A stretch of DNA of 47,994 nt from assembly GCA_964481225.1 (NCBI GenBank), contig CAYZTE010000002.1:1-47994 (forward strand). Direction: 5' to 3'. The stretch comes from an uncultured archaeon. Its GTDB lineage: Archaea > Asgardarchaeota > Lokiarchaeia > Sigyniarchaeales > SOKP01. The position numbers and the translations under genes were made by a program. The notes under the pieces were generated by a model. That model had not been told where the DNA came from, did no database searches, and saw only the letters and a list, made by a program, of their open reading frames with translations. This document shows positions 3,287-32,267 of this stretch, one piece after another (within the stretch, counting starts at the first letter, position 1; every line of letters begins with the position of its first letter).

Positions 3287-3817
3287 TTAAGTTCTTTTAA
3301 TTACTTTAACTAAACCTTTTTTTCGGAGCTGATCCATCATTTTTTCTATTTCTTCTATGCTTTTTTGAACAATGGAGGCTACTTGTTCAATTGTATTCAT
3401 TCCATCACAGACTTTTAGTACGATAAATTGTTCTTTTGAGAGCATTCCTAATTGAACAGCCATTGGTGGTATTTCTTTTACAACGATTGGAATTCTCACT
3501 TCGCCGCCAGCTTGAGCTGTTTCAGCCCCAATTTCTTCGGTACTTGGAGATTCTCCAAAAAATGATTTTACTTCTTGGATGTTATAATTGTCATCAATGT
3601 AGATATAAATTGTATGTTCTTCTCCAGAGACATCATCTGGATCTTCAAGATCAGGATAAGGATTTGAGTGTCTATGTTCTTTAGTGTATATGCCGGTTAG
3701 TAATCCGCTGATAATCTCTTCTTTATCAATATTCAGTGCAATCATGTCATCACAAATCGGACACCAAGCCCATGCTTCTATAAGCCTGAAATATTTCTTC
3801 ACTTTATTTTCTGGCAT
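3287..3817 (-). CDS. Hypothetical protein with possible CxxC...HxH site and C-terminal winged-helix-like domain
   Basis: 176-aa ORF. CPIC...HRH near the N-terminus. C-terminal LSKEQFIVLKVCDGMNTIEQVASIV...LRKKGLVKV resembles a wHTH. Convergent with the GTPase. Confidence 0.5.
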   Translation of the reverse strand: MPENKVKKYFRLIEAWAWCPICDDMIALNIDKEEIISGLLTGIYTKEHRHSNPYPDLEDPDDVSGEEHTIYIYIDDNYNIQEVKSFFGESPSTEEIGAETAQAGGEVRIPIVVKEIPPMAVQLGMLSKEQFIVLKVCDGMNTIEQVASIVQKSIEEIEKMMDQLRKKGLVKVIKRT

Positions 3818-4038
3818 CGTAATTCTCTTTGAAGATAAATTTAGAATTATTTAGATAAATTATATGCAAATTATGGTGTTTACTAATTTAAATTTTAATT
3901 AATATTGTAATTAAATAAATCTTATATAGTAAATTGTAGATATTTTTTTTCTCATTTCTTTTTATCAAAACCAAAAATAATTAAAGTTATAATATGTTTT
4001 AAAATCTAAGTTCTACTAAAGTAATAATTGATAACTTC

Positions 4039-4595: not shown

Positions 4596-6452
4596 TCAAC
4601 CTGTTCTTTTAAAAAGTTTATCTAATTCTTTAAATGAAAGGAACCTTATAGTAGGTCTTCCATGAGCGCAATGATAAGAATCTTTACATGCTGCTAATTG
4701 AATTAATAGATCTCTGATATCCTTCAAAGATAAATCATCACCACCTCTAATGCTTTTATGACACGCTAAATAATTAATGATTTCTTCTTTGCCTTCCATA
4801 AAGCTTTTATCTTTTCCGATTTTAGTTATGTCGCTAATAATTTCTTCTATAATATTGATGCCAGGAAATTTTTCCATAATTGTAGGAATTTCTCTTAAAA
4901 TGAAAGTATTTCCACCGAAATGCTCGAAATTAAACCCTAGCTTTTTTATTTCAATTAAGTTTCCTTCTAAAAATACGCGCTCACTTGGAGTCACGTCGAT
5001 TTTTAAAGGAGAAATTAACTTTTGTCTGCTTGTTTTTGCGGTTTCATATGCAGTTAAAAGCTTTTCTTTCTTTATTCGTTCGGATGCTGCGTGCTGATCT
5101 AAAATGAATATGCCCTCCTCATCATTCTCATTAATACCTTCTAAAACAACGTATGTTTTATTACTTAATTGACCTGTACGAGAAATTAATCGAATTTTTG
5201 GAAAGTTGTTTGAAATAATAAATTTATTTCTTATATACGATTCAGGTAATACTTTTCGATCTAACTCATCTTTAATTATATGATCTCTTAGGCTCAACTG
5301 GACTGTTTCTTTGATTTTTATACTCTTTTCTTCCAATTTTCCTTCTTCTGAGTCTAGAATTCCTTCAACAGGTTTCTCTAATTTATCTAATTTCTTCTCT
5401 TCTTTAGGTAAAAAATATTCTAGTTCAGTGGATATATATTTTGCTTCCTTAATTATGAACTTATCCTCAACAAAACTCCGAATTATGTTGTAAACCTTGT
5501 TGTATAAACTCTCCTCCTTTTCGAATCTGATGTAAAGCTTTTTTGGATGAACATTAAAATCAACAGAAGAAGGGTTAAGTTCAAGGAATAAAATAAAAAA
5601 TGGATACTTATTTACCATTAGAGTTCCCTTGTATGCTTCTCTAATCGCCCTAAATAATATATCACTAATTACATACCGGCGATTAACATATAAACTTGAA
5701 TATTTCCTGTTTTTTTTAGCAATTTGTGGATGTCCTAGTAACCCATATATTTTTAATGAAGTTTCTTTCTCTGTATAATCAATGGGTTCCATCATTTTTG
5801 CCATATTCTTTCCGTATATGTGAAAGATGGTTGTTTTTAAGTCATTATTAGCAGGGCAATTTAACATGTCTAAATTGTTATGTTGATAAAGGAAGTGAAG
5901 TTCGGGGTATGATATAGAATATCTTTGTATGATATCAGTGATGTGCCCTAGTTCTGTAGAATCTTTTTTCAGAAATTTCTGTCTAGCCGGAATGTTGAAA
6001 AATAAGTTTTTAACGGTAATATTCGTCCCTACAGGACATGATACCTCCTTTTTATCGATTATTTTCCCTCCTTCCATGTTTAATTGTACTCCCCTTTCAT
6101 TTTTAGCTGTTCTTGAAATGATTTCAACTTGACTAACTGCTGCAATACTAGCAAGTGCTTCTCCCCTGAAACCTAAAGTTGAAAGTTCATCCAAATCCTC
6201 GATGCTTCTAATCTTACTACTTGTATGCCTTTCAAATGCTATTTCTATATCTTCTGGAGGGATACCCATACCATCGTCTATGACTTGAACTAACGATTTT
6301 CCTGCTTTTTTAACAATTATTCTTATTTCATTTGCTCCAGCATCAATGCTATTTTCGATAAGTTCTTTTACAACATTACTAGGGCGCTCTACTACTTCAC
6401 CAGCAGCAATTTTTTCAGCGTCTATGATTTTTTTAATTCTTGGTTCCGACAC
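4596..6452 (-). CDS. mutL: DNA mismatch repair protein MutL (endonuclease-type)
   Basis: GHKL motifs ELIENSIDAGA, DDGMGI, GFRGEAL. C-terminal DQHAASERIKKE (DQHAx2Ex4E), ACHKSIRGG and CAHGRPT motifs. Confidence 0.9.
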   Translation of the reverse strand: MSEPRIKKIIDAEKIAAGEVVERPSNVVKELIENSIDAGANEIRIIVKKAGKSLVQVIDDGMGIPPEDIEIAFERHTSSKIRSIEDLDELSTLGFRGEALASIAAVSQVEIISRTAKNERGVQLNMEGGKIIDKKEVSCPVGTNITVKNLFFNIPARQKFLKKDSTELGHITDIIQRYSISYPELHFLYQHNNLDMLNCPANNDLKTTIFHIYGKNMAKMMEPIDYTEKETSLKIYGLLGHPQIAKKNRKYSSLYVNRRYVISDILFRAIREAYKGTLMVNKYPFFILFLELNPSSVDFNVHPKKLYIRFEKEESLYNKVYNIIRSFVEDKFIIKEAKYISTELEYFLPKEEKKLDKLEKPVEGILDSEEGKLEEKSIKIKETVQLSLRDHIIKDELDRKVLPESYIRNKFIISNNFPKIRLISRTGQLSNKTYVVLEGINENDEEGIFILDQHAASERIKKEKLLTAYETAKTSRQKLISPLKIDVTPSERVFLEGNLIEIKKLGFNFEHFGGNTFILREIPTIMEKFPGINIIEEIISDITKIGKDKSFMEGKEEIINYLACHKSIRGGDDLSLKDIRDLLIQLAACKDSYHCAHGRPTIRFLSFKELDKLFKRTG

Positions 6453-6761
6453 GGTATTACAAAATTTTTTTAAATCTTATCCAGGGATAAGATAATTTTA
6501 TAAGGTTAATATATTTCACATTTTAATCAAATTTAAAATAATACACTATTAAAGTTTAAATAAATCAGAATTAAGATGATTTTGAAATTTAAAAAGCTAT
6601 AAGAATTATTTGTATTCACTTAGAAACTTATTATTTATAGTTCCAAAAAACATAAGCGCACCCCAAATTCCTGAAAATACCTTTAAGTAAGTCTTTTAAA
6701 TTTCCTTTAATACTTAATACTAAATTAACTTAGAACATGAATTATAACCAATTGGATTATT

Positions 6762-7673
6762 ATGAATGACGAGGAAGATTACGCAATCCACGTGTACTTT
6801 GTCTATATTTTTGTAATAATAACCCTCTTCCTCGTAATTCTAAGAATATTTCTATATTCTTTTGAGATTTCACCTTGGATAAAGGAAACAAAGGATATTG
6901 ATTTTAAAATCCTTATAGAAGGCATGAAAAATGGTTTGATTGACTTTTATGACGATGTTGCAATTTCAGATTGGCCACCTTATTATCTATATTTCTGGTA
7001 TTTCTTGTTCTTTCCAATTTACATGATCCCCCTTAATGTATACATTGGTGTTTACGTTTGGGATGCTTTAAGATTAATTTTGACCATATTAGTTATAAGA
7101 GAATCACCTAAAGTATTTAAAAACAAGAGAGATTTACTAATTTTTTACATGTTTTGTGTAGTTGGTTTTAGCATTGACGCGTATTATAATAATGTCAACT
7201 TTTTAATTGCTTTCTTTTTATTTTATTCATACGTTTATCTAGAAAAAGATCAAAAATGGATTGCTGGTATTTTCTTTACTCTTGCGACGTTTAAAATCAC
7301 TGCGATATTATTTCTTCCTGTTTTGCTTATTGTTAAAAAGATAAGATTCAAAGATCTGATGTATTATTTAATTCCATTTGCTATTGTTTGCATTCCTTAT
7401 ATTGTTTTTCCTGACTATTTCTTTCAAATGGTAACCAATTGGGGACATAGTGATGCCGAAATAAAAGGGATTCTAATTTTTGATTCAATTCTTTGGAAGG
7501 CTTTGCAACCTTCACACTTGATGTTTATTGGCCTTTTATTAATATTATTTATGGAAAATATTAAAATAGAAAAAAGAAAAAACATATATAGGATAATCTT
7601 AGTCTCAATAATAATAGTCTATTATGTTTATCTCACAATTATAGTTTTCATAATTCCAGTTGTTTTGGCTTAG
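6762..7673 (+). CDS. Polytopic integral membrane protein (possibly GT-C/DUF2029-like glycosyltransferase)
   Basis: 303 aa with many hydrophobic segments. The WPPYYLYFWYF loop motif is the only basis for the family guess. Its stop overlaps the mutS stop (convergent). Confidence 0.55.
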   Translation: MNDEEDYAIHVYFVYIFVIITLFLVILRIFLYSFEISPWIKETKDIDFKILIEGMKNGLIDFYDDVAISDWPPYYLYFWYFLFFPIYMIPLNVYIGVYVWDALRLILTILVIRESPKVFKNKRDLLIFYMFCVVGFSIDAYYNNVNFLIAFFLFYSYVYLEKDQKWIAGIFFTLATFKITAILFLPVLLIVKKIRFKDLMYYLIPFAIVCIPYIVFPDYFFQMVTNWGHSDAEIKGILIFDSILWKALQPSHLMFIGLLLILFMENIKIEKRKNIYRIILVSIIIVYYVYLTIIVFIIPVVLA

Positions 7674-10534
7674 CTAATTTTTTTTATTTTTCTTGTAAGT
7701 TCTAATAACTGCTCTTTTAATTTAGCTGGAATGTCAGAATTTATATCAATTTCTTTAATATAATGAAGTAAATCCGTAAATTTCTCTTTATAGCTTATTG
7801 GTTCGAATAAACTTGTTTGTACATACTTTTTCTTTTTTGTAGTTTTAATTTCAGAAAACTTAACTTTTTTAGTTTCTAAATCTTTAATTTCACACTGTTT
7901 TCTATATAATTCCTTTTGGCTTTTTTGTAGATCTTCAATGCATTCGCTTAGTGTTTCTTTAATAGTTTTGAGTCCTATGTTTAGCTTTTCAAGTTCAACC
8001 TTTTTTCCATTAATTAATTTATCATAATATTTACCTGATGAAGCTGTTTCCCCGTTTTCTCTTACGGTCGTTCTAAAAGGATCTTTTTCTTCTATTTGTT
8101 CAAGAATTTCAAAAGCTCTTATTATCACATCATCAGGAATCCCTGCTAATTTTGCTACATGGATACCATAGGATTTATCTGTGCTTCCCGGCTTTAATGT
8201 TCTAACAAAATTTATACTCCCATCATCATTTTCAATAATATCTAAATGATAATTTTTTACTCCTAGTAAATTAATTTCTGTTAATTGATGATAATGGGTG
8301 CTGAATAAAGTCTTAATTTTTAACTCATTTAGTTTCTCAAGAGTAGCCATTGCTATACTTTGACCATCACTAGTACTTGTCCCCCTCCCTAACTCATCTA
8401 TTATTATAAGACTTTTTGGTGTAGCATAATTTAAAATTTTGGCTGTTTCAGTCATCTCAATCATAAAAGTGCTTAATTTTCGAGCAAGGTCATCTGAAGC
8501 TCCTATTCGTGTAAAAAGTTGATCAATAATTCCAATTGTGGCGGATTTTGCTGGAACAAAACATCCCATCTGCGCAATAATACATATTAAAGCTACTTGC
8601 CGTAAATAGGTAGATTTTCCAGCCATATTAGGGCCAGTAATAATTAATAATTGGTCATTTTCATTATCTAAATAACAATTATTAGGAATAAATTGCTCAT
8701 CCAAATTTATTTGTTCGACTACGGGATGCCTACCATCTTTAATTATGATTTTGTTGTCATTATTGATAATCGGTCTACAGTAATTATAATTTTCTGCAAC
8801 TTCAGCAAAACATACGAGAACATCAATAGTAGCAATATTTTTTGCAGTTTCAAGGATGTTTTTAGTTTCTTTTTCGACACTTTCCCGAATAGTATTGAAA
8901 ATTTCATATTCTAAATCGTTAATTTTTTCTTCTGCATTTACAATTTTTTCTTCAAGCTCTTTTAATCTTTTTGTTGTATATCTTTTAGCATTCTTGAGTG
9001 TTGCTCTCTCAATATATTCTTCAGGAATCGTCCTTATAGTTTTAAGAGTTCTCAATGTTATTTCAATATAATAACCTAAAATATTATTATATCCAACTTT
9101 TAATCCTGTAGTTAAATTCCATTTTTTCTTTTGCTCTTGTTCATATTCTAATACATATTTCTTCCCATTATGTATTATATCCCTTAAATCATCTACATCA
9201 TCGTTAAACCCATCCTTAATAATATTACCTTCTCTAATAGTAGTTGGGGGATTATCCCTAATTGAGATCTCTATTAGGTCTTTTATTTCATTGAAAGTTT
9301 TAATTTTTTCAGTAAAGCTTAAAATTTCTGGAATATCTGCCTTATCTACTAATTCTTTGATTATTGGAACTTTTTCTAAAGATTTTTTAATATTTATTAA
9401 ATCTCGAGCATTTGTACGACCAGTATAATTAATCCTATTAATAAATCTTTCCAAATCACCAATAACTCCTAGCTCTTCCCTTAGATCAGATCTCAAAAAG
9501 ATATCATCCTTAAACTTCTGAACGATATTCAATCTTTGATTTATTTCTTGAATATCTGTTAGAGGTTGGAGAATAAACTTTTTTAATAAACGAGCACCCA
9601 TTGGTGTTCCCGTCTGGTTAAAAATAGAATATAGTGTAGCATCCTTTCCTCTCTCCCACAAAGAATTAATCAATTCTAAATTCCTTTGTGAAATATAATC
9701 TAAGTGGAGTACATTTTTTTCTTGGATAACATTTATTTTAAAAATGTTTGGAATTAAATCTCGTTGAGTGTCTTTCAAAAATGCTAAAAGCCCCCCTGCT
9801 GCTTGGACAGCCATTTCTTTATCTTCTAGATCAAAACTTTTTAAATTTGAAATTTTAAAATGCCGAGAAATTAATGTATGAGCTTCATCAAATAAAAAGT
9901 TATGCTCTTCATAGGTTTTAATAATTGCTTTTGTTAAATCAGTCAATATAATAAAGAGTCTCTCATCCTTTTTCAGTTCAGGAGGAATAATTAATTCTAC
10001 AGGATCATATTGAGAAAATAAACTTAGTAATTTTTCCTGTGGATCTTGGTCTTTATTTGAAAATTCCGTTGCTACAAACTCTCCAGTAGATATATCAGCG
10101 AAAGCAACCCCAAATCCATTTCTTTCTTTAACCATAGAGGCAATATAATTATTCTCATTGGATTTTAACAAGTTTGGGTCTATTATTGTTCCAGGTGAAA
10201 GTATCCGAGTAACTCCTCGTTTCACAATTCTTCCCTTCACAGTCGCGGGATCTTCTAATTGATCAACTATTACTAAAGTCTCACCAAGATTCATGAGATT
10301 GTTAAAGTAATTATGGCCAGAATGGTGTGGAATCCCTGCTAGAGGAACATCTCCTCTCTTTGTTAATGTTATCCCTAAAAGTTTTGAAATTTTTTCGGCA
10401 TCATCAAAAAAGAATTCATAAAAATCTCCCATACGGTATGCAATGAGATTCTCTGAAGGAAACCTTTTACGAATAGAATACCAATGCTTTAACATAGGAG
10501 TTAGTTTTCTTTCGTTTATTTCCTTCATAATCAA
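7670..10534 (-). CDS. mutS: DNA mismatch repair protein MutS (bacterial MutS1 type) with C-terminal coiled-coil extension
   Basis: TPMLKHWYSIRKRFP, mismatch-binding GDFYEFF, Walker A GPNMAGKST, DELGRGTS, STHYH. 954 aa. Confidence 0.9.
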   Translation of the reverse strand: MIMKEINERKLTPMLKHWYSIRKRFPSENLIAYRMGDFYEFFFDDAEKISKLLGITLTKRGDVPLAGIPHHSGHNYFNNLMNLGETLVIVDQLEDPATVKGRIVKRGVTRILSPGTIIDPNLLKSNENNYIASMVKERNGFGVAFADISTGEFVATEFSNKDQDPQEKLLSLFSQYDPVELIIPPELKKDERLFIILTDLTKAIIKTYEEHNFLFDEAHTLISRHFKISNLKSFDLEDKEMAVQAAGGLLAFLKDTQRDLIPNIFKINVIQEKNVLHLDYISQRNLELINSLWERGKDATLYSIFNQTGTPMGARLLKKFILQPLTDIQEINQRLNIVQKFKDDIFLRSDLREELGVIGDLERFINRINYTGRTNARDLINIKKSLEKVPIIKELVDKADIPEILSFTEKIKTFNEIKDLIEISIRDNPPTTIREGNIIKDGFNDDVDDLRDIIHNGKKYVLEYEQEQKKKWNLTTGLKVGYNNILGYYIEITLRTLKTIRTIPEEYIERATLKNAKRYTTKRLKELEEKIVNAEEKINDLEYEIFNTIRESVEKETKNILETAKNIATIDVLVCFAEVAENYNYCRPIINNDNKIIIKDGRHPVVEQINLDEQFIPNNCYLDNENDQLLIITGPNMAGKSTYLRQVALICIIAQMGCFVPAKSATIGIIDQLFTRIGASDDLARKLSTFMIEMTETAKILNYATPKSLIIIDELGRGTSTSDGQSIAMATLEKLNELKIKTLFSTHYHQLTEINLLGVKNYHLDIIENDDGSINFVRTLKPGSTDKSYGIHVAKLAGIPDDVIIRAFEILEQIEEKDPFRTTVRENGETASSGKYYDKLINGKKVELEKLNIGLKTIKETLSECIEDLQKSQKELYRKQCEIKDLETKKVKFSEIKTTKKKKYVQTSLFEPISYKEKFTDLLHYIKEIDINSDIPAKLKEQLLELTRKIKKIS

Positions 10535-26422: not shown

Positions 26423-26522
26423 TTTTTGTTTAAATAAAATCAAATTAAAATTAAATTCTAACAAAGATTATATACTTAAAACATATATAAGTAAAAATCA
26501 ATTAAAATTGTGAGTGAGAACT

Positions 26523-26843
26523 ATGGCTAAAAAAAAGAGTGTCCCAGGTGAAGAAGAGCAATATGAGATTCCAAGTGGAAAAGTAGATGAAGATGGAGAC
26601 GAATTATTAGATCTATCTGATTGGAAAGATGATTTAGAAGATGATGTAGAGCATAATCTCAATAAAATTAAAGACGATATGTTAGCAGATGAGACGGAGG
26701 ATGAAGAATTTGGTTATGAAATAAACGAAATTGAAGCTTTAATGAGGAAAGTAAAATGCGCACCATGTCCTGGTAGCTCAAGTAAGCGAGATTGTAAAGT
26801 AAGGGATGACTTTGGATGTCCACCAGATAAAGCTAATAAGTGA
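26523..26843 (+). CDS. Hypothetical highly acidic protein with C-terminal Cys cluster
   Basis: D/E-rich ORF ending KCAPCPGSSSKRDCKVRDDFGCPP. The ATG at 26523 is preferred over the GTG at 26514. Confidence 0.45.
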   Translation: MAKKKSVPGEEEQYEIPSGKVDEDGDELLDLSDWKDDLEDDVEHNLNKIKDDMLADETEDEEFGYEINEIEALMRKVKCAPCPGSSSKRDCKVRDDFGCPPDKANK

Positions 26844-27987: not shown

Positions 27988-28242
27988 TTGAGTTTAAATA
28001 GTTTTGATCTAATTAACTTCATAAAAAGTCCAAACATTAACCCTCTTTTTAAATTCAAAATGTTTAAGTGTGAAATTTGCGGCAAAATAATTAAAACCGA
28101 GGAATTAAATCAAGTTTTTCAATTTACATTAGGAAATGTTAAATCTGAAAAATTTTATGGCGAACAGACATTATATTACCATATAAATTGTCTAACTAAT
28201 TCTAAACATAAAAAATCAGAGATGATCACTTTCATAACTTAA
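27988..28242 (+). CDS. Hypothetical small protein (possible zinc-binding CxxC...HxxC)
   Basis: 84-aa ORF with a TTG start. CEICGK...HINC. Weak support. Confidence 0.3.
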   Translation: MSLNSFDLINFIKSPNINPLFKFKMFKCEICGKIIKTEELNQVFQFTLGNVKSEKFYGEQTLYYHINCLTNSKHKKSEMITFIT

Positions 28243-28270: not shown

Positions 28271-29437
28271 CTAAAAGAGAAAAATTGTTTCTTTTATTGA
28301 TTCGATAATTAATTTAATACTCATGTTTATTATTTTGAGTTTTTTGTCAAAATAATCCTCATTTGCTTTAGATTTCTCTATTTCATCAAAGATATTGAAG
28401 AATTGCTTTTGAGACTCTAATTCCATTGAGTAGACTTTTTTTCGCATTATTGCATCATTCATGTTTACTAAACAACCGTGGTCATGAAAATGATGGTTAA
28501 ATGCAGGAAAATAAGTTTGCCATAAAATATTCTTCAATTTATTGTATACATTTCTAGCTAATCGTTCACAGTAACTTTTACTTCTATTACTATAACAAAA
28601 ATAAAATGGTAACTTGTCATGATTATTAGATACATGTTCCTGTAGTTTTTCATAAACTGTATCTAATTGTTTCATTGTTAAATTTATATGAGTATGATCG
28701 GCATTAGGATTGCATTTATAAAACAACGGTTTCCTAGAAAATGGAATTTCATAGAGTTTGATAATATTATATATTATTCCTTCTTTGAGCCAATGCGAAA
28801 ATTTGTAAGTTATTGATTTTTCTTTTAAATTCTTCACTAGATCTATTGTAAATCGTTCAAGGAGCGAAGTTTCGTGAAAATCAAGTATATAAATCGATAT
28901 TTCATCATGTTCCCAGAATTTTTCGAGGATTTTTTTTAGTAATTTAGTGTGTTCTGGAATTGGATATTCATCAAGCTCGTTCTCTTCATTTTTATATTCT
29001 GGTGCGAAAGTTCTCCTCCAATAACGATTCAAATTCGTTCCATTTTTTAAATAATATCCTGATTTATTATCTCTTCTAGGATTTAAAAATCCATAAGGAT
29101 TCAATAAGGGGGCAAAAATCAAAACTTGGTTTTTCAACAGAATCTCGTCTGTAGTAATTAAAGATGTCCTAATCATATTAAGAAAACCTAAAATTCCAAA
29201 TAACCCATTATATTCATTATGCTGAGCTCCCACAAAAACTTTTATGTATCTAGTTTCTTCGGGATCTAACGATTCTGCAATTGTTATGACAGGAATCTTG
29301 CCTTCAGACGTATCAAATTCCAAGTAATTTATTTTTTTTATCTGATCATATTTTTTTAACTTATTCAAAATTTTGTCAAATAATTCATGCCTATTAGGTA
29401 GATTTAGTAACTCCTTCAGAATTTCACGATTTATCAT
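28271..29437 (-). CDS. M14-like zinc carboxypeptidase / AstE-AspA-like deacylase superfamily protein
   Basis: Ordered motifs GAQHNEYNG (res 70-78), LNPYG (112-116), NLNRYW (135-140), LDFHET (185-190), YSMELE (336-341). These parallel M14 HxxE, NPDG, DLNRN, the third-ligand His and the catalytic-Glu strand. The first motif has HxE spacing. Confidence 0.6.
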   Translation of the reverse strand: MINREILKELLNLPNRHELFDKILNKLKKYDQIKKINYLEFDTSEGKIPVITIAESLDPEETRYIKVFVGAQHNEYNGLFGILGFLNMIRTSLITTDEILLKNQVLIFAPLLNPYGFLNPRRDNKSGYYLKNGTNLNRYWRRTFAPEYKNEENELDEYPIPEHTKLLKKILEKFWEHDEISIYILDFHETSLLERFTIDLVKNLKEKSITYKFSHWLKEGIIYNIIKLYEIPFSRKPLFYKCNPNADHTHINLTMKQLDTVYEKLQEHVSNNHDKLPFYFCYSNRSKSYCERLARNVYNKLKNILWQTYFPAFNHHFHDHGCLVNMNDAIMRKKVYSMELESQKQFFNIFDEIEKSKANEDYFDKKLKIINMSIKLIIESIKETIFLF

Positions 29438-29440
29438 AAT

Positions 29441-30889
29441 TCAATCAACTATTTTATCCCATTCTGAAAAGTTTATAATCTTTTCGTAATTTTTTACTAT
29501 CCCAGCAAATAGTACACATCCAATACAAAACATATTTATAAAATCTTCAATAGTTAAGTTTAAAAGCTTACCATTTTTTCTTGAGAATCCTATTCCCCTA
29601 TCAACTTCAATTTGGCCATCGTATCCTGATAGATTAACAACGAATTCTTGTTTATTCAATCCTCCGCTATAACTTCCACGGGCAATTCTTGCCAGCCCCC
29701 CTATTGGTATCACCATACCATTATTTTGAGCTAGATATATTCTTAAATCAAATGTATGCCTTCCCTCTCGCCAATTAATTAATGAAAAATTAGCTTTTTC
29801 CTGTATCGTGTATGGATAAGGATTGCGGTTTTTCATGAATTTTGCAAAGAATTCCCTTTTGCTTTCTTCAATTAGTTTTTTAATGTTCATCGATTCTTCG
29901 TCTTCAGACACGGGAATAATGCCAGCTCCACCTGAACCCCCACTAGGTTTTATAACAAAAGGTTTTTTATACTTTTTTATGAGAAATTCTAATTTATCTA
30001 TTAAATCCTTCTCGTTAAATGCTTTTGTGAATAGGAGATACCTAAGATTATACTTTTTTAACAATTCTTTGCTGTAAAAACTTGCTAGGTATGTTAAAGA
30101 TTTGTCATCAGTTATTCTAAAAATAGGATTTACAATGATCGTGTTTATTTGACGAAAATCTTCTTTGGTTTGCTTGATAAATCTCTCATCATTTAATCGC
30201 CTTGTAATCCCATCCCCTATTAAAACGTTCACATCCTCCCGTTCATATTTAACCCAATTATCAGAGAAAGAGAGTGAAGTTGATAATTGTTTATAGTCAG
30301 CAATTAAAAAGACTACATCAGCTTTAAAATCTCTATCATAATTATCTGTATTAAAAATTTTCACGTAATAAGCTTTCGATTTTATAATTTTCCTAAAATA
30401 TTCAATCATTATAACCTTTTCATGAATTAAAGCATCATTCACGGGGACTCCAATTAACACGAAAATTTTCTTATCAGCTCTCTTTTTTCTCTTAATTGCT
30501 TGATAAATTGCTTTAAGATATCCATCATACAATAATGATTGCTGCTTTTTGGTGATTATTGAAAGCCCTCTATGTGATCCCCCATTAGTTTCTAATAAAA
30601 AGAATTTTTTTCCTTCAGGTTCATCAGAAACCATAAAATCGATACTACCAGCATAAAAGGAATCATCGTTAACTAAAAAATTATCCCCATTTTTTTTCAT
30701 CTTCTCTATTGCTTTATCTCTAACTATATCTATGAAATTATCTTCTTGAGAAGCCCTTAATTCTGCAAATGATACTAAATCTAGCCCTAATGACTGACCT
30801 AATGCTATTAATTCTAAATCTGAGTCTGAAATGCTTGTAGACATTAATTTAAGAAATTTAGTTAGCAAATCTTCTTCCATAAAAATCAT
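29441..30889 (-). CDS. ATP-grasp superfamily amidoligase (TTL/RimK/YheCD-like), apparently circularly permuted
   Basis: VNPIFRITDDKSLTYL, FVIKPSGGSGGAGI (res 311-324), TFDLRIYLAQ...GGLARIARGS (379-405), VVNLSG. The D...ExN block IDFMVSDEPEGKKFFLLETNGGS lies at res 83-105 and is absent from the C-terminus. Confidence 0.65.
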   Translation of the reverse strand: MIFMEEDLLTKFLKLMSTSISDSDLELIALGQSLGLDLVSFAELRASQEDNFIDIVRDKAIEKMKKNGDNFLVNDDSFYAGSIDFMVSDEPEGKKFFLLETNGGSHRGLSIITKKQQSLLYDGYLKAIYQAIKRKKRADKKIFVLIGVPVNDALIHEKVIMIEYFRKIIKSKAYYVKIFNTDNYDRDFKADVVFLIADYKQLSTSLSFSDNWVKYEREDVNVLIGDGITRRLNDERFIKQTKEDFRQINTIIVNPIFRITDDKSLTYLASFYSKELLKKYNLRYLLFTKAFNEKDLIDKLEFLIKKYKKPFVIKPSGGSGGAGIIPVSEDEESMNIKKLIEESKREFFAKFMKNRNPYPYTIQEKANFSLINWREGRHTFDLRIYLAQNNGMVIPIGGLARIARGSYSGGLNKQEFVVNLSGYDGQIEVDRGIGFSRKNGKLLNLTIEDFINMFCIGCVLFAGIVKNYEKIINFSEWDKIVD

Positions 30890-31034
30890 TAATTAGCAAT
30901 ACATTCTTGATATAATATTTCTAACGCATTCTTTTTTTATAATCTATTACTCATTATTTAAAGAGGAATCTTTTTAAGTGTATTAAAAGATAAAGGCCGG
31001 GAAAAAATATCTCACGGCTATTTTATAGAGTCTA

Positions 31035-32267
31035 TTATAAATACAAATAACCTTGATGATTTCCTTTTGTTGATAATCGAAGACTCCCAAGTAAAATCTT
31101 TTTTACTTGAAGTTGCTGTTTATAAGTCAAGTTTGAATATAACAAAATATAATTTTTCTCAATATTGATTGTAAAAAGAAGTCCTATTTCTATCAATTCA
31201 GATTTTTCTGTAAGTAAACCGATTATTACATAATGGTAAGGTAAATTAACTAAATTACTGATATTTATGTTTTTTTCTATTATTTCATTCAATTCTATTT
31301 CGTATTCTGTCTTGATAAACTTCATGTCGTTTAATGGGATAGAAATTTTTCTAAATTCCTCAAATTTTTTGGAAAATTGACTTTGTCTTAAAAACCTTCT
31401 CTCCTCTTTATTTTTTTCATGAAAATATTTGTTCTTTTCCTTAATTAGGTAGATTTTCCGATCTTTTCTTATGCTTGATGCTGTTTTTTCAATATCTTTT
31501 AATTCTTCAATCAAATCATTGTGAAAAACGATAAGAATATCAGGATCTACTGTTTTGATGAAGAAATTCTTATAAAGAATGCCTGCTTCTGTTTTTATCC
31601 ATCCATCAGTATCAATCAATATAAAACTTGTATCCTTGTTATTAGCTAAATAATCCTTAATTAAATTCCTACAATAAAGAGAAACAGTGAATTTGTAATT
31701 TCCCTTGGGAAATGTAGCACCTATGAATATGGTTTTCTCAGAATTAATGTTTTCGCTTGAAACAATATAATCTTCAATCCTACCTATGTTAATTGTGGTC
31801 GGCAGGTAAATGATTTGCTGTCCGAGATCAGAATCGAGATATCCCCCCTTAAATCCCTCTTTCATAAAGTTATTCGCTAAGTATTTGATAAGGGTCGTTT
31901 TTCCACTACTAATTCCTAAAACCATTATTTTTAAAGGAGATTCAGGATTTTTCTTTAATTCTTCTCCAATTTCATCTTTAATCTCAATCCATTTAAGAGG
32001 GATGGAATTTTCCTTGATTAATTTGACATTTTCTTCAATATTGGTATAAATGTCCAATTTAGAGTTCAATAATGCGTGTAGTGGATAGCTTTGGGCACTT
32101 GGTATTATTAAAACATTTTGATCTTGAATATTAGAAACACTTGATGAAGGTTTTTCTTTTTTTGGAAGCAAAATCTTACCAAAAACATCAATCTTTCCTT
32201 CTAATAATGTAATTCTTGCGGGTCCTTTTATTAATAAAGTATGTCCCTTGTTGATATTCTTAATCAT
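31035..32267 (-). CDS. Clp1/Grc3-family polynucleotide 5'-hydroxyl kinase
   Basis: N-terminal beta-domain LLIKGPARITLLEGKIDVFGKIL, Walker A VLGISSGKTTL, LDSDLGQQ, Walker B-like ILIDTDGW. Confidence 0.75.
   Translation of the reverse strand: MIKNINKGHTLLIKGPARITLLEGKIDVFGKILLPKKEKPSSSVSNIQDQNVLIIPSAQSYPLHALLNSKLDIYTNIEENVKLIKENSIPLKWIEIKDEIGEELKKNPESPLKIMVLGISSGKTTLIKYLANNFMKEGFKGGYLDSDLGQQIIYLPTTINIGRIEDYIVSSENINSEKTIFIGATFPKGNYKFTVSLYCRNLIKDYLANNKDTSFILIDTDGWIKTEAGILYKNFFIKTVDPDILIVFHNDLIEELKDIEKTASSIRKDRKIYLIKEKNKYFHEKNKEERRFLRQSQFSKKFEEFRKISIPLNDMKFIKTEYEIELNEIIEKNINISNLVNLPYHYVIIGLLTEKSELIEIGLLFTINIEKNYILLYSNLTYKQQLQVKKILLGSLRLSTKGNHQGYLYL

Follow-up and report, generated by a model that had tools for sequence, protein, structure and literature searches.

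A predicted circularly permuted ATP-grasp ligase and an optional M14-clan hydrolase form a conserved gene pair in Asgard archaea

Enzymes of the ATP-grasp superfamily phosphorylate a carboxylate and then couple it to an amine. Such ligases can be matched by a hydrolase, as in the metabolism of N-acetylaspartate and N-acetylaspartylglutamate (NAA/NAAG), where RIMKLA-B and aspartoacylase form a ligase/hydrolase couple. Characterised members of the AstE/AspA group deacylate small N-acyl amino acids (N-succinyl, N-acetyl), and an M14/AstE-type enzyme with an intact N-R pair is expected to hydrolyse an amide bond beside a free alpha-carboxylate. Among stand-alone ligases, Cp1B and Cp2B are 'hypothetical' proteins that show no detectable sequence identity with known ATP-grasps and for which Foldseek gives hGSH synthetase and YgiC/YjfC as neighbours (PMC12568646). 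Cp1B joins an L-amino acid to a dicarboxylic acid and carries its catalytic D...E-x-N in the N-terminal domain, while YgiC and YjfC are peptide-spermidine ligases (PMC12568646). Here, we describe a ligase and a hydrolase gene that lie side by side at positions 28271-30889 on the minus strand of contig CAYZTE010000002.1, from an uncultured archaeon of the Asgard class Lokiarchaeia. The window is the whole stretch of DNA that was analysed, 47,994 nucleotides (nt) long.

The two genes are predicted to encode an ATP-dependent synthetase of an N-acyl-amino-acid or short peptide-like compound and its optional cognate amidohydrolase, a reading to which we give a probability of about 0.45. By analogy with their superfamilies, a single amide bond to an amino acid is probably formed by one of the enzymes and broken by the other. 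An earlier reading made from the sequence alone (the original prediction) had described two minus-strand open reading frames (ORFs) of 482 and 388 amino acids (aa) lying 3 nt apart, and both the coordinates and the junction agree with that description. The short spacer implies that ligase and hydrolase would be co-transcribed or translationally coupled. Because the homologues begin at the fourth codon, the ligase probably starts at M4.

29441-30889, minus strand: circularly permuted ATP-grasp ligase (predicted), 482-aa ORF; the M4 start is probably at 30880, giving 479 aa
28271-29437, minus strand: M14-clan zinc hydrolase (predicted), new subfamily, 388-aa ORF
29438-29440, minus strand: 3-nt spacer from the ligase stop to the hydrolase start, junction GAT TGA att ATG

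The AlphaFold (AF2) model of the ligase has a pLDDT of 80.6 and a pTM of 0.85. In Foldseek searches with this model, ranks 1-29 are all eukaryotic-type GSH/hGSH synthetases (GSH, glutathione), glutathione synthetase (GS)-like effectors, 3n6x (CP_ATPgrasp_2) and YgiC. These matches span about 400-510 aligned columns with probabilities of 0.82-1.0, identities of 10-14% and TM-scores of 0.29-0.38; the low TM-scores might be expected of a three-domain enzyme with a mobile lid. E-values are 2e-8 to 4e-5 for the eukaryotic-type synthetases and GS-like effectors, which align over about 400-490 columns, and 4.7e-6 for 3n6x. No TTL, RimK or other canonical ATP-grasp is found among the top 50 matches. 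The catalytic residues of the ligase fall into three blocks.

30566-30649, minus strand: Mg/acyl-phosphate block of the ligase, GSIDFMV (D84) ... FFLLETNGGSHRG (E100, N102); N-terminal, residues 81-104, nearly invariant
29918-29959, minus strand: ATP-binding strand and Gly-rich loop of the ligase, FVIKPSGGSGGAGI (K314, G323); conserved family-wide
29732-29755, minus strand: TFDLRIYL block of the ligase (R383); R383 nearly invariant

The order of these blocks points to a circular permutation. Residues 84-102 with the D...E-x-N motif precede residues 314-323, and the Mg block lies about 210 residues before the K-loop; sequence and model together indicate that the ATP-grasp domain is circularly permuted. 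In VIKPSGGSGGAG, the ATP-binding lysine sits on a beta-strand and is followed by the Gly-rich loop, with K314, P315 and G323 nearly invariant throughout the family. The loop has low pLDDT in the model, as expected of a mobile P-loop, and the D84/E100/N102 block forms a beta-hairpin. Both features by which an ATP-grasp enzyme is recognised, a lysine strand with a Gly-rich loop and an acidic residue with an E-x-N site, are present in the ligase. Relatives as distant as 16-20% identity still nearly always share Q48, D84, E100, N102, G103, G108, E157, D226, N254, K263, K314, P315, G323, P359 and R383, and no family-wide invariant residue is found C-terminal to R383. The D84...E100-x-N102 motif aligns weakly to the C-terminal E-x-N Mg site of MCC/biotin-carboxylase-type ATP-grasp enzymes. 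It also parallels D141/E163/N165 of the GS-like Cp1B (PMC12568646). The K-loop block aligns to PurD, biotin carboxylase and TTLL7, and with a broad profile the core of K314/Gly-rich loop and R383 FDLR aligns to TTLL7 (E = 4e-4) and to biotin-carboxylase-type enzymes. For TFDLRIYL, the aligned counterparts are FDLRIY in TTLL7 and the YheCD profile. The ligase very probably represents a new family, with an intact catalytic apparatus, in the circularly permuted GS-like ATP-grasp clade.

None of the established families takes in the ligase at the sequence level. It has no Pfam family model of its own, and its Pfam matches are all sub-threshold and partial, within residues 284-403. The best of these are YheCD (PF14398; 22.1 bits against a gathering score of 26.8, over profile positions 28-148 of 255), ATPgrasp_ST, CP_ATPgrasp_2 (18.7 bits against a 32-bit cutoff, a weak match at the end of the profile) and GSH-S_ATP. 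Some homologues carry a weak precomputed YheCD match, and one is named YheC/YheD by NCBI. Pfam GSH_synth_ATP gives no match, and no GS chain appears in PDB sequence searches; with the single sequence and with the family profile, these searches yield nothing significant (PurD, E = 0.0026). The RimK-related NCBIfam model TIGR02291 scores 18.3 bits against a cutoff of 314. Pfam TTL and RimK do not match the window ligase at E <= 1, and TTL weakly matches two of 49 relatives. When the family profile is compared with E. coli YgiC by hhalign, the K-loop alone is aligned, at a probability of 1%. A Pfam scan of the ligase and three relatives de-permuted in silico leaves scores and coverage unchanged. 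Membership in the GS, CP_ATPgrasp, TTL, RimK or YheCD families is rejected on the sequence criteria of those families.

The homologues of the ligase form 353 clusters (at 90% identity) in Asgard metagenome-assembled genomes (MAGs), at 61-91% identity. Among the 120 ligase homologues listed, identities are 69-91%, the length is about 479 aa, the hosts are Asgard ('Promethearchaeota') MAGs, and nearly all are annotated as hypothetical. Only 87 clusters match the family profile at E <= 1e-3 among 1.84 billion representative proteins; because of this small number, we call the family rare.

The hydrolase is modelled with a pLDDT of 92.9. Foldseek matches it with a probability of 1.0 to REP34, CPA1/2/4, CPB, CPT, CPD and bacterial CCP-like proteins, the latter including the structures 3l2n, 3k2k and 4b6z, and the target-normalised TM-scores against M14 carboxypeptidases reach 0.59. 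The model confidently gives the second ORF an M14 (funnelin-type) alpha/beta fold. At the sequence level, Pfam Peptidase_M14 (PF00246) scores 15.2 bits against a cutoff of 21.6, and only one of the 120 hydrolase homologues listed has a precomputed PF00246 match. NCBIfam and PDB sequence searches, with the single sequence and with the family profile, give no matches, nor does Pfam AstE_AspA_cat match the window hydrolase. Its homologues form 234 clusters, all annotated as hypothetical. The predicted active site comprises the following segments.

29198-29233, minus strand: first metal motif of the hydrolase, VGAQHNEYNGLF (VGAQHNEYNG; H73, E75), an H-x-E variant; invariant over clades at 26-45% identity
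29018-29041, minus strand: GTNLNRYW (N137, R138), putative carboxylate-binding block; invariant or nearly so
28862-28888, minus strand: ILDFHETSL (D186, H188), putative third metal ligand; invariant in all clades
28403-28435, minus strand: VYSMELESQKQ strand (E341, presumed general base; K344); E341 and K344 invariant in clades A and B

A PLLNPYGF block is also present. Across the hydrolase clades, at 26-45% identity, the invariant blocks are (A/S)QH-NEY.G.FG, N.N(R/K)xW, DFHETSL, and E341 with K344; unlike these last two residues, E339 is not invariant across clades A and B. The catalytic roles of H188, N137/R138 and E341 are assigned by motif analogy. N137/R138 are presumably the counterparts of N144/R145 in carboxypeptidase A, and E341, which stands on a beta-strand in the model, would act like E270 of that enzyme. 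The first metal motif differs from the canonical pattern. QH-NE in the Asgard hydrolases reads H-x-E, one residue shorter than the canonical H-x-x-E zinc motif of M14 and AstE, and AstE-type partners and a solved succinylglutamate desuccinylase read QHG(N/D)E and HADE at this place. With a one-residue gap, the motif aligns to AAQHGNEWNG of a bacterial AstE partner and to GLHADEFPG of the solved desuccinylase. To our knowledge, an H-x-E metal motif is unprecedented, and its conservation indicates that it is selectively maintained. GTNLNRYW aligns to DMNRTW and GTNFNRDY of AstE-type proteins, and ILDFHETSL shares its D-x-H with the D-L-H motif of the AstE partners. The only PDB sequence matches of a bridging profile are the AstE structures 8ein/8eip. 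Owing to the M14 Foldseek matches and these block alignments, the subfamily is best described as M14 by predicted fold and AstE-like in motif style.

All of the ligase and hydrolase motifs quoted in the original prediction are present, and they are invariant or nearly so in 120 homologues of each protein, so that, judged from the alignments, their conservation exceeds chance. The assignment of the ligase as an ATP-grasp amidoligase is borne out by the intact catalytic residues and by the fold from structure prediction and Foldseek, and the M14 fold proposed for the second ORF is recovered. The ordered M14 motif set stands as far as its blocks are concerned, except that QHNE is one residue short. 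Likewise, the ATP-grasp motifs were correctly read, but the N-terminal Mg site (GSIDFMV...FFLLETNGG, residues 81-104), and hence the permutation, had been missed. The two genes are conserved as neighbours in Lokiarchaeial (Loki) genomes, in metagenomes and in a distant Asgard pair, as follows.

Scanning species-representative genomes gave 122 stretches with a relative of the ligase, and the best 80 loci were examined. All 80 lie in Asgard MAGs, with ligases 61-80% identical to that of the window. The hydrolase is directly downstream in 49 of these loci, cut by the contig end in two, a remnant in two and absent in 26; one locus could not be judged. It is thus adjacent in 51 of the 79 judgeable loci, and 28 of the 79 lack an intact hydrolase, absence being judged at the locus. 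Where it is absent, the next gene begins 87-390 nt after the ligase. In the two remnant loci (L034:7451-7612 and L061:7466-7618), about 50 aa of the hydrolase N-terminus, at 48-49% identity, follow directly after an intact ligase, and these appear to be cases of hydrolase loss caught in progress. On the ligase tree, the hydrolase changes state at least nine times, including one hydrolase-less clade of 18 species. In all 28 hydrolase-less lineages, the ligase is full-length with all key residues. The ratio of hydrolase to ligase clusters (234:353) agrees with the frequency at the loci, which argues for real loss of the hydrolase and not its relocation.

The reverse test started from the hydrolase in 76 metagenome loci, 61 of them judgeable. 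In 58 of the 61, a ligase immediately precedes the hydrolase. The gap between them is 2-32 nt, except in one locus with 106 nt and another with about 280 nt; over 56 metagenome loci, the equivalent ligase-hydrolase gaps are 2-32 nt with one of 106 nt. In the remaining three loci, the ligase is 3.4 kb away in one and undetected in the ~440 nt upstream in two. Contig L156 carries two copies of the ligase 3' end (L156:3-347 and 3757-3984), about 3.4 kb apart, upstream of the hydrolase, which points to a ligase disrupted by insertion, duplication or mis-assembly. The pairing is asymmetric: the hydrolase nearly always accompanies the ligase, and the ligase is independent of the hydrolase.

Loki genomes are syntenic over the whole 15-kb region, and the decisive evidence for linkage is for this reason that from distant homologues. 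On the Asgard contig L083, a ligase 39% identical to that of the window is followed 20 nt later by a hydrolase of 29% identity (E = 2e-32), which keeps GAQHNEYNG, NxNRYW, LDFHETS and IEIE. In two bacterial-type contexts (L084/L085 and L087), the ligase is 31-32% identical and is followed by a protein that matches Pfam AstE_AspA_cat (e.g., 8.7e-28) and overlaps the ligase by 11 nt or starts 45 nt downstream. No zinc hydrolase is present beside the distant ligase homologues on L086, L088, L089 and L091. The ligase-hydrolase pairing is genuine and ancient. More remote homologues of the ligase lie among MFS/ABC transporters and other ATP-grasp ligases, surroundings that, by analogy, are typical of small-molecule pathways. 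One of them, on the metagenomic contig L089 (6001-8025), is a very distant relative of 674 aa (E = 7e-5 against the family profile) with a GPP34 domain (GOLPH3-like; Pfam 6e-31) fused at its N-terminus, and it is flanked by two D-Ala-D-Ala-ligase-like genes, MFS transporters and an ABC substrate-binding protein.

From the mechanism common to the ATP-grasp superfamily, the ligase would activate a carboxylate by means of ATP as an acyl-phosphate and form an amide between it and an amino acid's amino group. This would yield a small compound of the N-acyl-amino-acid, pseudo-dipeptide or short peptide-like type whose alpha-carboxylate stays free. The M14-clan hydrolase, presumably co-transcribed with the ligase, would recognise this carboxylate through its N-R block and cleave the amide bond made by the ligase, allowing turnover, recycling or editing. 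It would be an optional accessory, the ligase working alone in a third of Loki species. Since an ATP-grasp enzyme that adds an amino acid creates a bond next to a free alpha-carboxylate, such making and unmaking by the two enzymes would hold for any acceptor. A small acceptor is favoured because small amides are the products of all characterised enzymes in the structurally closest clade (the GSH and hGSH synthetases, Cp1B, and YgiC, whose annotation is peptide-spermidine ligase), because the bacterial partner is an AstE/AspA-type enzyme, and because no gene for a candidate substrate protein is conserved next to the pair in any of the contexts examined.

Several points weigh against this proposal. 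In sequence, the ATP core of the ligase most resembles YheCD, ATPgrasp_ST and TTL, the last of which is a family of protein-modifying enzymes. The likeness to the GS clade is confined to the fold, with low TM-scores and no sequence match to GS, GSH_synth_ATP or YgiC. The recurrent neighbours are phosphoester and RNA-end enzymes, not classic metabolite-pathway genes. The identity of substrate and product as small molecules is drawn from the chemistry of relatives, and the activity of the hydrolase is assumed by analogy despite its H-x-E metal motif, which is without known precedent.

Another reading, closer to the original prediction, is that the ligase extends a specific protein by one or more amino acids, at its C-terminus or on a side-chain carboxylate, and that the M14-like enzyme trims them, in analogy with TTL/TTLL and CCP or with RimK. 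The TTL- and YheCD-like ATP-binding core of the ligase, the M14 fold of the hydrolase with CCP-like structures among its matches, and the suitability of an optional hydrolase for an 'eraser' role agree with it. However, the overall fold and topology of the ligase are those of the permuted GS-like clade, not of TTL or RimK, and neither the Pfam TTL and RimK models nor the RimK-related NCBIfam (18 bits against 314) claim it. The missing substrate gene and the small-molecule deacylase type of the bacterial partner also speak against a protein substrate. The CCP N-terminal beta-sandwich domain gives no Pfam match in the hydrolase at E <= 1, and the N-terminus of the hydrolase model is helical (helices at residues 4-32). 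Nothing specific supports tailing of the tubulin type, and we regard protein tailing, in this form as in general, as unlikely. The homology to TTL/RimK and cytosolic carboxypeptidases that had been drawn is not upheld, since the ligase belongs structurally with the permuted GS-like enzymes, and the repeated loss of the hydrolase beside a retained ligase does not fit an obligate writer/eraser pair. Placement among glutathione-type synthetases, which the original prediction had named as telling against it, is approached at the fold level, but there is no sequence-level membership. The setting of eukaryote-like cytoskeleton and trafficking genes that it invoked is missing from the window, where a Pfam scan of the proteins finds no such genes; as it stated, the window also holds no identifiable substrate gene. 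Its fallback, small-peptide synthesis and trimming, comes close to the explanation favoured here.

The neighbours of the ligase raise a different possibility, involving RNA ends.

31035-32267, minus strand: Clp1-type P-loop polynucleotide kinase (Pfam CLP1_P, E = 1.6e-27)
30890-31034, minus strand: AT-rich spacer of 145 nt with TATA-like elements, 5' of the ligase; putative promoter, suggested by its sequence
L083:11620-12828; L084:6799-7989; L087:3132-4358; L095:7001-8212; L096:7001-8254: members of the ~400-aa RtcB-like family

A protein of about 400 aa without any Pfam or NCBIfam match is encoded 5' of the ligase in both bacterial cassettes, and it recurs in the L083 block (31% identity, E ~1e-60). 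On the Lokiarchaeial contig L095, the order is Metallophos, HD, the ~400-aa protein and a second-clade ligase (hhalign probability 100%, E = 2e-67). The protein therefore stands beside ligase homologues in three independent contexts (L083, L084/85/87 and L095). Its family comprises 972 clusters in Asgard, Bathyarchaeia, Halobacteriota, Actinobacteria, Desulfobacterota and Planctomycetota, and usually adjoins an HD phosphohydrolase; on L096, it occurs with HD and without a ligase. The invariant blocks of the family are PNxCG, NHF, H, THQ, PHGxGY and YRG. RtcB accounts for all four of the best PDB sequence matches of its profile (E = 0.04-0.17, over GNHF(I/L)E and H(T/S)GS); the hhalign comparison with E. 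coli RtcB is weak, with E = 1.9e-4 and a probability of 47%. The family is a probable distant, unrecognised branch of the RtcB superfamily.

In the block L083:6398-12828, the ligase and the M14-like hydrolase are joined by a 541-aa metallophosphoesterase, an HD protein and the ~400-aa RtcB-like protein, and the block is flanked by EF-1alpha and S10. The genes for EF-1alpha and ribosomal protein S10 normally adjoin in the archaeal str operon. As the five genes separate these two, their arrangement suggests a single unit, an inserted functional cassette. The L083 contig also carries ubiquitin, E2, E1 and RING genes. About 3 kb from the RtcB-like/ligase block of L095 (12990-15212) lie an ATP-grasp_3/Ddl-like ligase, a lysine-2,3-aminomutase-like radical SAM enzyme and a second Ddl-like ligase; an M20 peptidase in convergent orientation and a GNAT are close by. 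The cluster may serve beta-amino-acid peptide metabolism.

From these neighbours, the ligase and the hydrolase could serve an RNA-end or phosphoester system, modifying a component, a cofactor or a nucleotide-linked intermediate of an RtcB-like/HD/metallophosphoesterase module, to which Clp1 would be added in Loki-type genomes. The HD and Metallophos genes in the same blocks as the RtcB-like protein accord with this, as does Clp1, which precedes the ligase in the same orientation at nearly every one of the 80 Loki loci. Against it, the RtcB assignment is weak, and the RtcB-like family is far larger than the ligase family and is found without it on L096. Furthermore, neither the window nor the 6 kb around each of the 80 Loki loci contains an RtcB-like copy. 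The adjacency of Clp1 could be mere genome-wide synteny of close relatives: Clp1 is not found beside distant ligase homologues. By BLAST, it does not resemble the ~400-aa protein encoded upstream in the bacterial cassettes. The 145-nt AT-rich, TATA-like spacer separates the ligase from Clp1, for which reason the pair is probably driven by its own promoter; a sigma-70 promoter and terminator scan gave the same result as shuffled sequence, as one would expect in AT-rich archaeal DNA. No mechanism joins amide ligation to RNA ends, and we consider a role in such a system improbable. A more specific form is a reversible 'amino-acid switch' of the RtcB-like/HD/metallophosphoesterase system in Asgard archaea and some bacteria, beside Clp1 in Loki-type genomes, in which an amino acid would be put on and taken off an RNA-end-processing enzyme, its cofactor or a nucleotide-linked intermediate. 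If true, RNA healing and sealing would be subject to a new level of regulation, and enzyme-specific tailing would have a prokaryotic precedent, but the chances of this form are slimmer still.

It is also conceivable, although quite unlikely, that the shortened metal motif makes the M14-like protein a non-catalytic pseudo-enzyme, acting as a regulatory or substrate-presenting subunit of the ligase. Besides H-x-E in place of H-x-x-E, a largely helical insertion of about 130 residues with conserved Cys/His between the third metal ligand (H188) and the strand glutamate (E341) would fit this. However, H73, E75, H188, N137/R138 and E341 are invariant at 26-45% identity, which suggests a maintained active site, and a canonical AstE/AspA enzyme fills the equivalent position in bacteria. 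The insertion (residues ~192-330, window 28403-28888) conserves C242, H248, H250, C290, H315, H320 and C322 in the window clade and has a weak Pfam zf-met2 match at residues 263-282; it may form a second, structural metal site. Clade B has a shorter or different insertion, and the AstE partners have none.

That the adjacency is functionally meaningless, a product of gene order conserved among close genomes, would agree with the synteny of the Loki region but is rejected as very improbable, being contradicted by the recurrence of the pair at 29-39% identity in the unrelated context of L083, by the same-clan AstE hydrolases paired with the ligase in bacteria, and by the hydrolase-seeded loci with their 2-32-nt gaps and 58 of 61 hydrolase genes following a ligase.

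The rest of the window, with a G+C content of 27-32%, holds housekeeping genes: MutS/MutL, PAS histidine kinases, 2-oxoacid:ferredoxin oxidoreductase, Rio2, SHMT, Clp1 and alpha/beta hydrolases. PADLOC gives no match for the ligase, the hydrolase, the RtcB-like protein or Clp1, leaving a known defence system unsupported. A bacterial-type full-length MutL (618 aa) and MutS (954 aa, domains I-V) are encoded at 4596-10534 on the minus strand of this Asgard DNA. A very acidic protein of 109 aa with a Cys-rich C-terminal tail (26514-26843, plus strand) matches no family and is kept at 55-79% identity in almost all of the 80 syntenic loci. Between the hydrolase and a convergent alpha/beta hydrolase lies an 84-aa Cys-containing ORF with a weak zf-PARP-like match (27988-28242, plus strand), which is seen in only about half of the syntenic Loki loci, regardless of the presence of the M14-like gene.

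Both proteins are undescribed families within known superfamilies. Their unusual features are, by sequence and model, the permuted topology combined with a TTL/YheCD-like core signature in the ligase and the H-x-E metal motif in the hydrolase. A search of a literature library found no paper describing the pair and none linking circularly permuted ATP-grasp enzymes with carboxypeptidases, Asgard archaea with both, or ATP-grasp enzymes with succinylglutamate desuccinylase operons, although an earlier in-silico mention is possible; a paper mentioning Asgard together with TTL merely surveys TTL in giant viruses. The pair is a solid, widely conserved Asgard module with testable chemistry. Since the ligase is found in at least 122 species-level genomes and has long been kept intact, its product is probably a significant metabolite or modification, and naming it would add a defined piece to Asgard physiology. 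If the favoured reading is true, an undescribed branch of GS-like permuted ATP-grasp enzymes, with an equally undescribed M14-clan H-x-E partner, exists in Loki-type Asgard archaea, in at least one further Asgard-type lineage and in a few bacteria. Identifying the product would also extend a ligase clade that has recently been useful in biocatalytic amide synthesis, and it would open a way into the RtcB-like family, which accompanies the ligase and is much larger and uncharacterised. The analysis also corrects an attractive but unsupported 'proto-tubulin-code' interpretation.

Among the described ligases, the eukaryotic GS/hGS enzymes (2hgs, 1m0w, 3kal, 5oes) are the best full-length structural match of the window ligase (E = 2e-8 to 1e-5). 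Both are about 450-480 aa long, and both have an Mg-binding E-x-N block before the K/Gly-rich loop and a flexible P-loop. However, the window ligase is only 10-14% identical to them, has no sequence-level match, carries YheCD/TTL-like ATP-core motifs and gives no evidence of glutathione chemistry. The GS-like stand-alone amide synthetases Cp1B/Cp2B of fungal E-64 biosynthesis and E. coli YgiC/YjfC are a second point of likeness. Cp1B shares the catalytic D...E-x-N in the N-terminal domain, and the products of the Cp1B/YgiC group are small amides to amino acids or amines. Cp1B itself is not among the top 50 Foldseek matches of the window ligase. YgiC is such a match, though without significant profile similarity beyond the K-loop. 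The lineages of these enzymes (fungi, gamma-proteobacteria) differ from that of the window ligase, and neither group has a linked M14-type hydrolase. The bacterial CP_ATPgrasp_1/2 systems share the permuted topology. Unlike these systems, the window-type ligases have no alpha-E or transglutaminase genes nearby; instead, their partners are the M14/AstE hydrolase and the RtcB-like protein.

On the side of the hydrolase, the AstE/AspA enzymes share the motif style AQH(G)NE(W/Y)NG ... NP ... NxNR ... DxH. In contrast to them, the window hydrolase has no Pfam AstE_AspA_cat match and finds its best fold matches in classical M14 carboxypeptidases, and, compared with the AstE partners, it shows the one-residue deletion in the metal motif and the large helical insertion. 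Assignment of the hydrolase to the CCP or AstE families is rejected on the lack of a Pfam match to the CCP N-terminal domain and to AstE_AspA_cat. TTL/TTLL enzymes with M14D CCPs follow the same logic, in which an ATP-grasp enzyme adds an amino acid and an M14 enzyme removes it, and the VIKPxxGxxGxGI and FDLRxY motifs of the window ligase align to TTLL7. Yet TTL is not circularly permuted, and the window ligase has no Pfam TTL match. The window hydrolase differs from CCPs in the lack of their N-terminal domain and in having H-x-E, not H-x-x-E, and no tubulin-like substrate is linked to the pair. By analogy, the pair would work like the TTLL/CCP or RIMKLA-B/aspartoacylase couples while belonging to none of those families.

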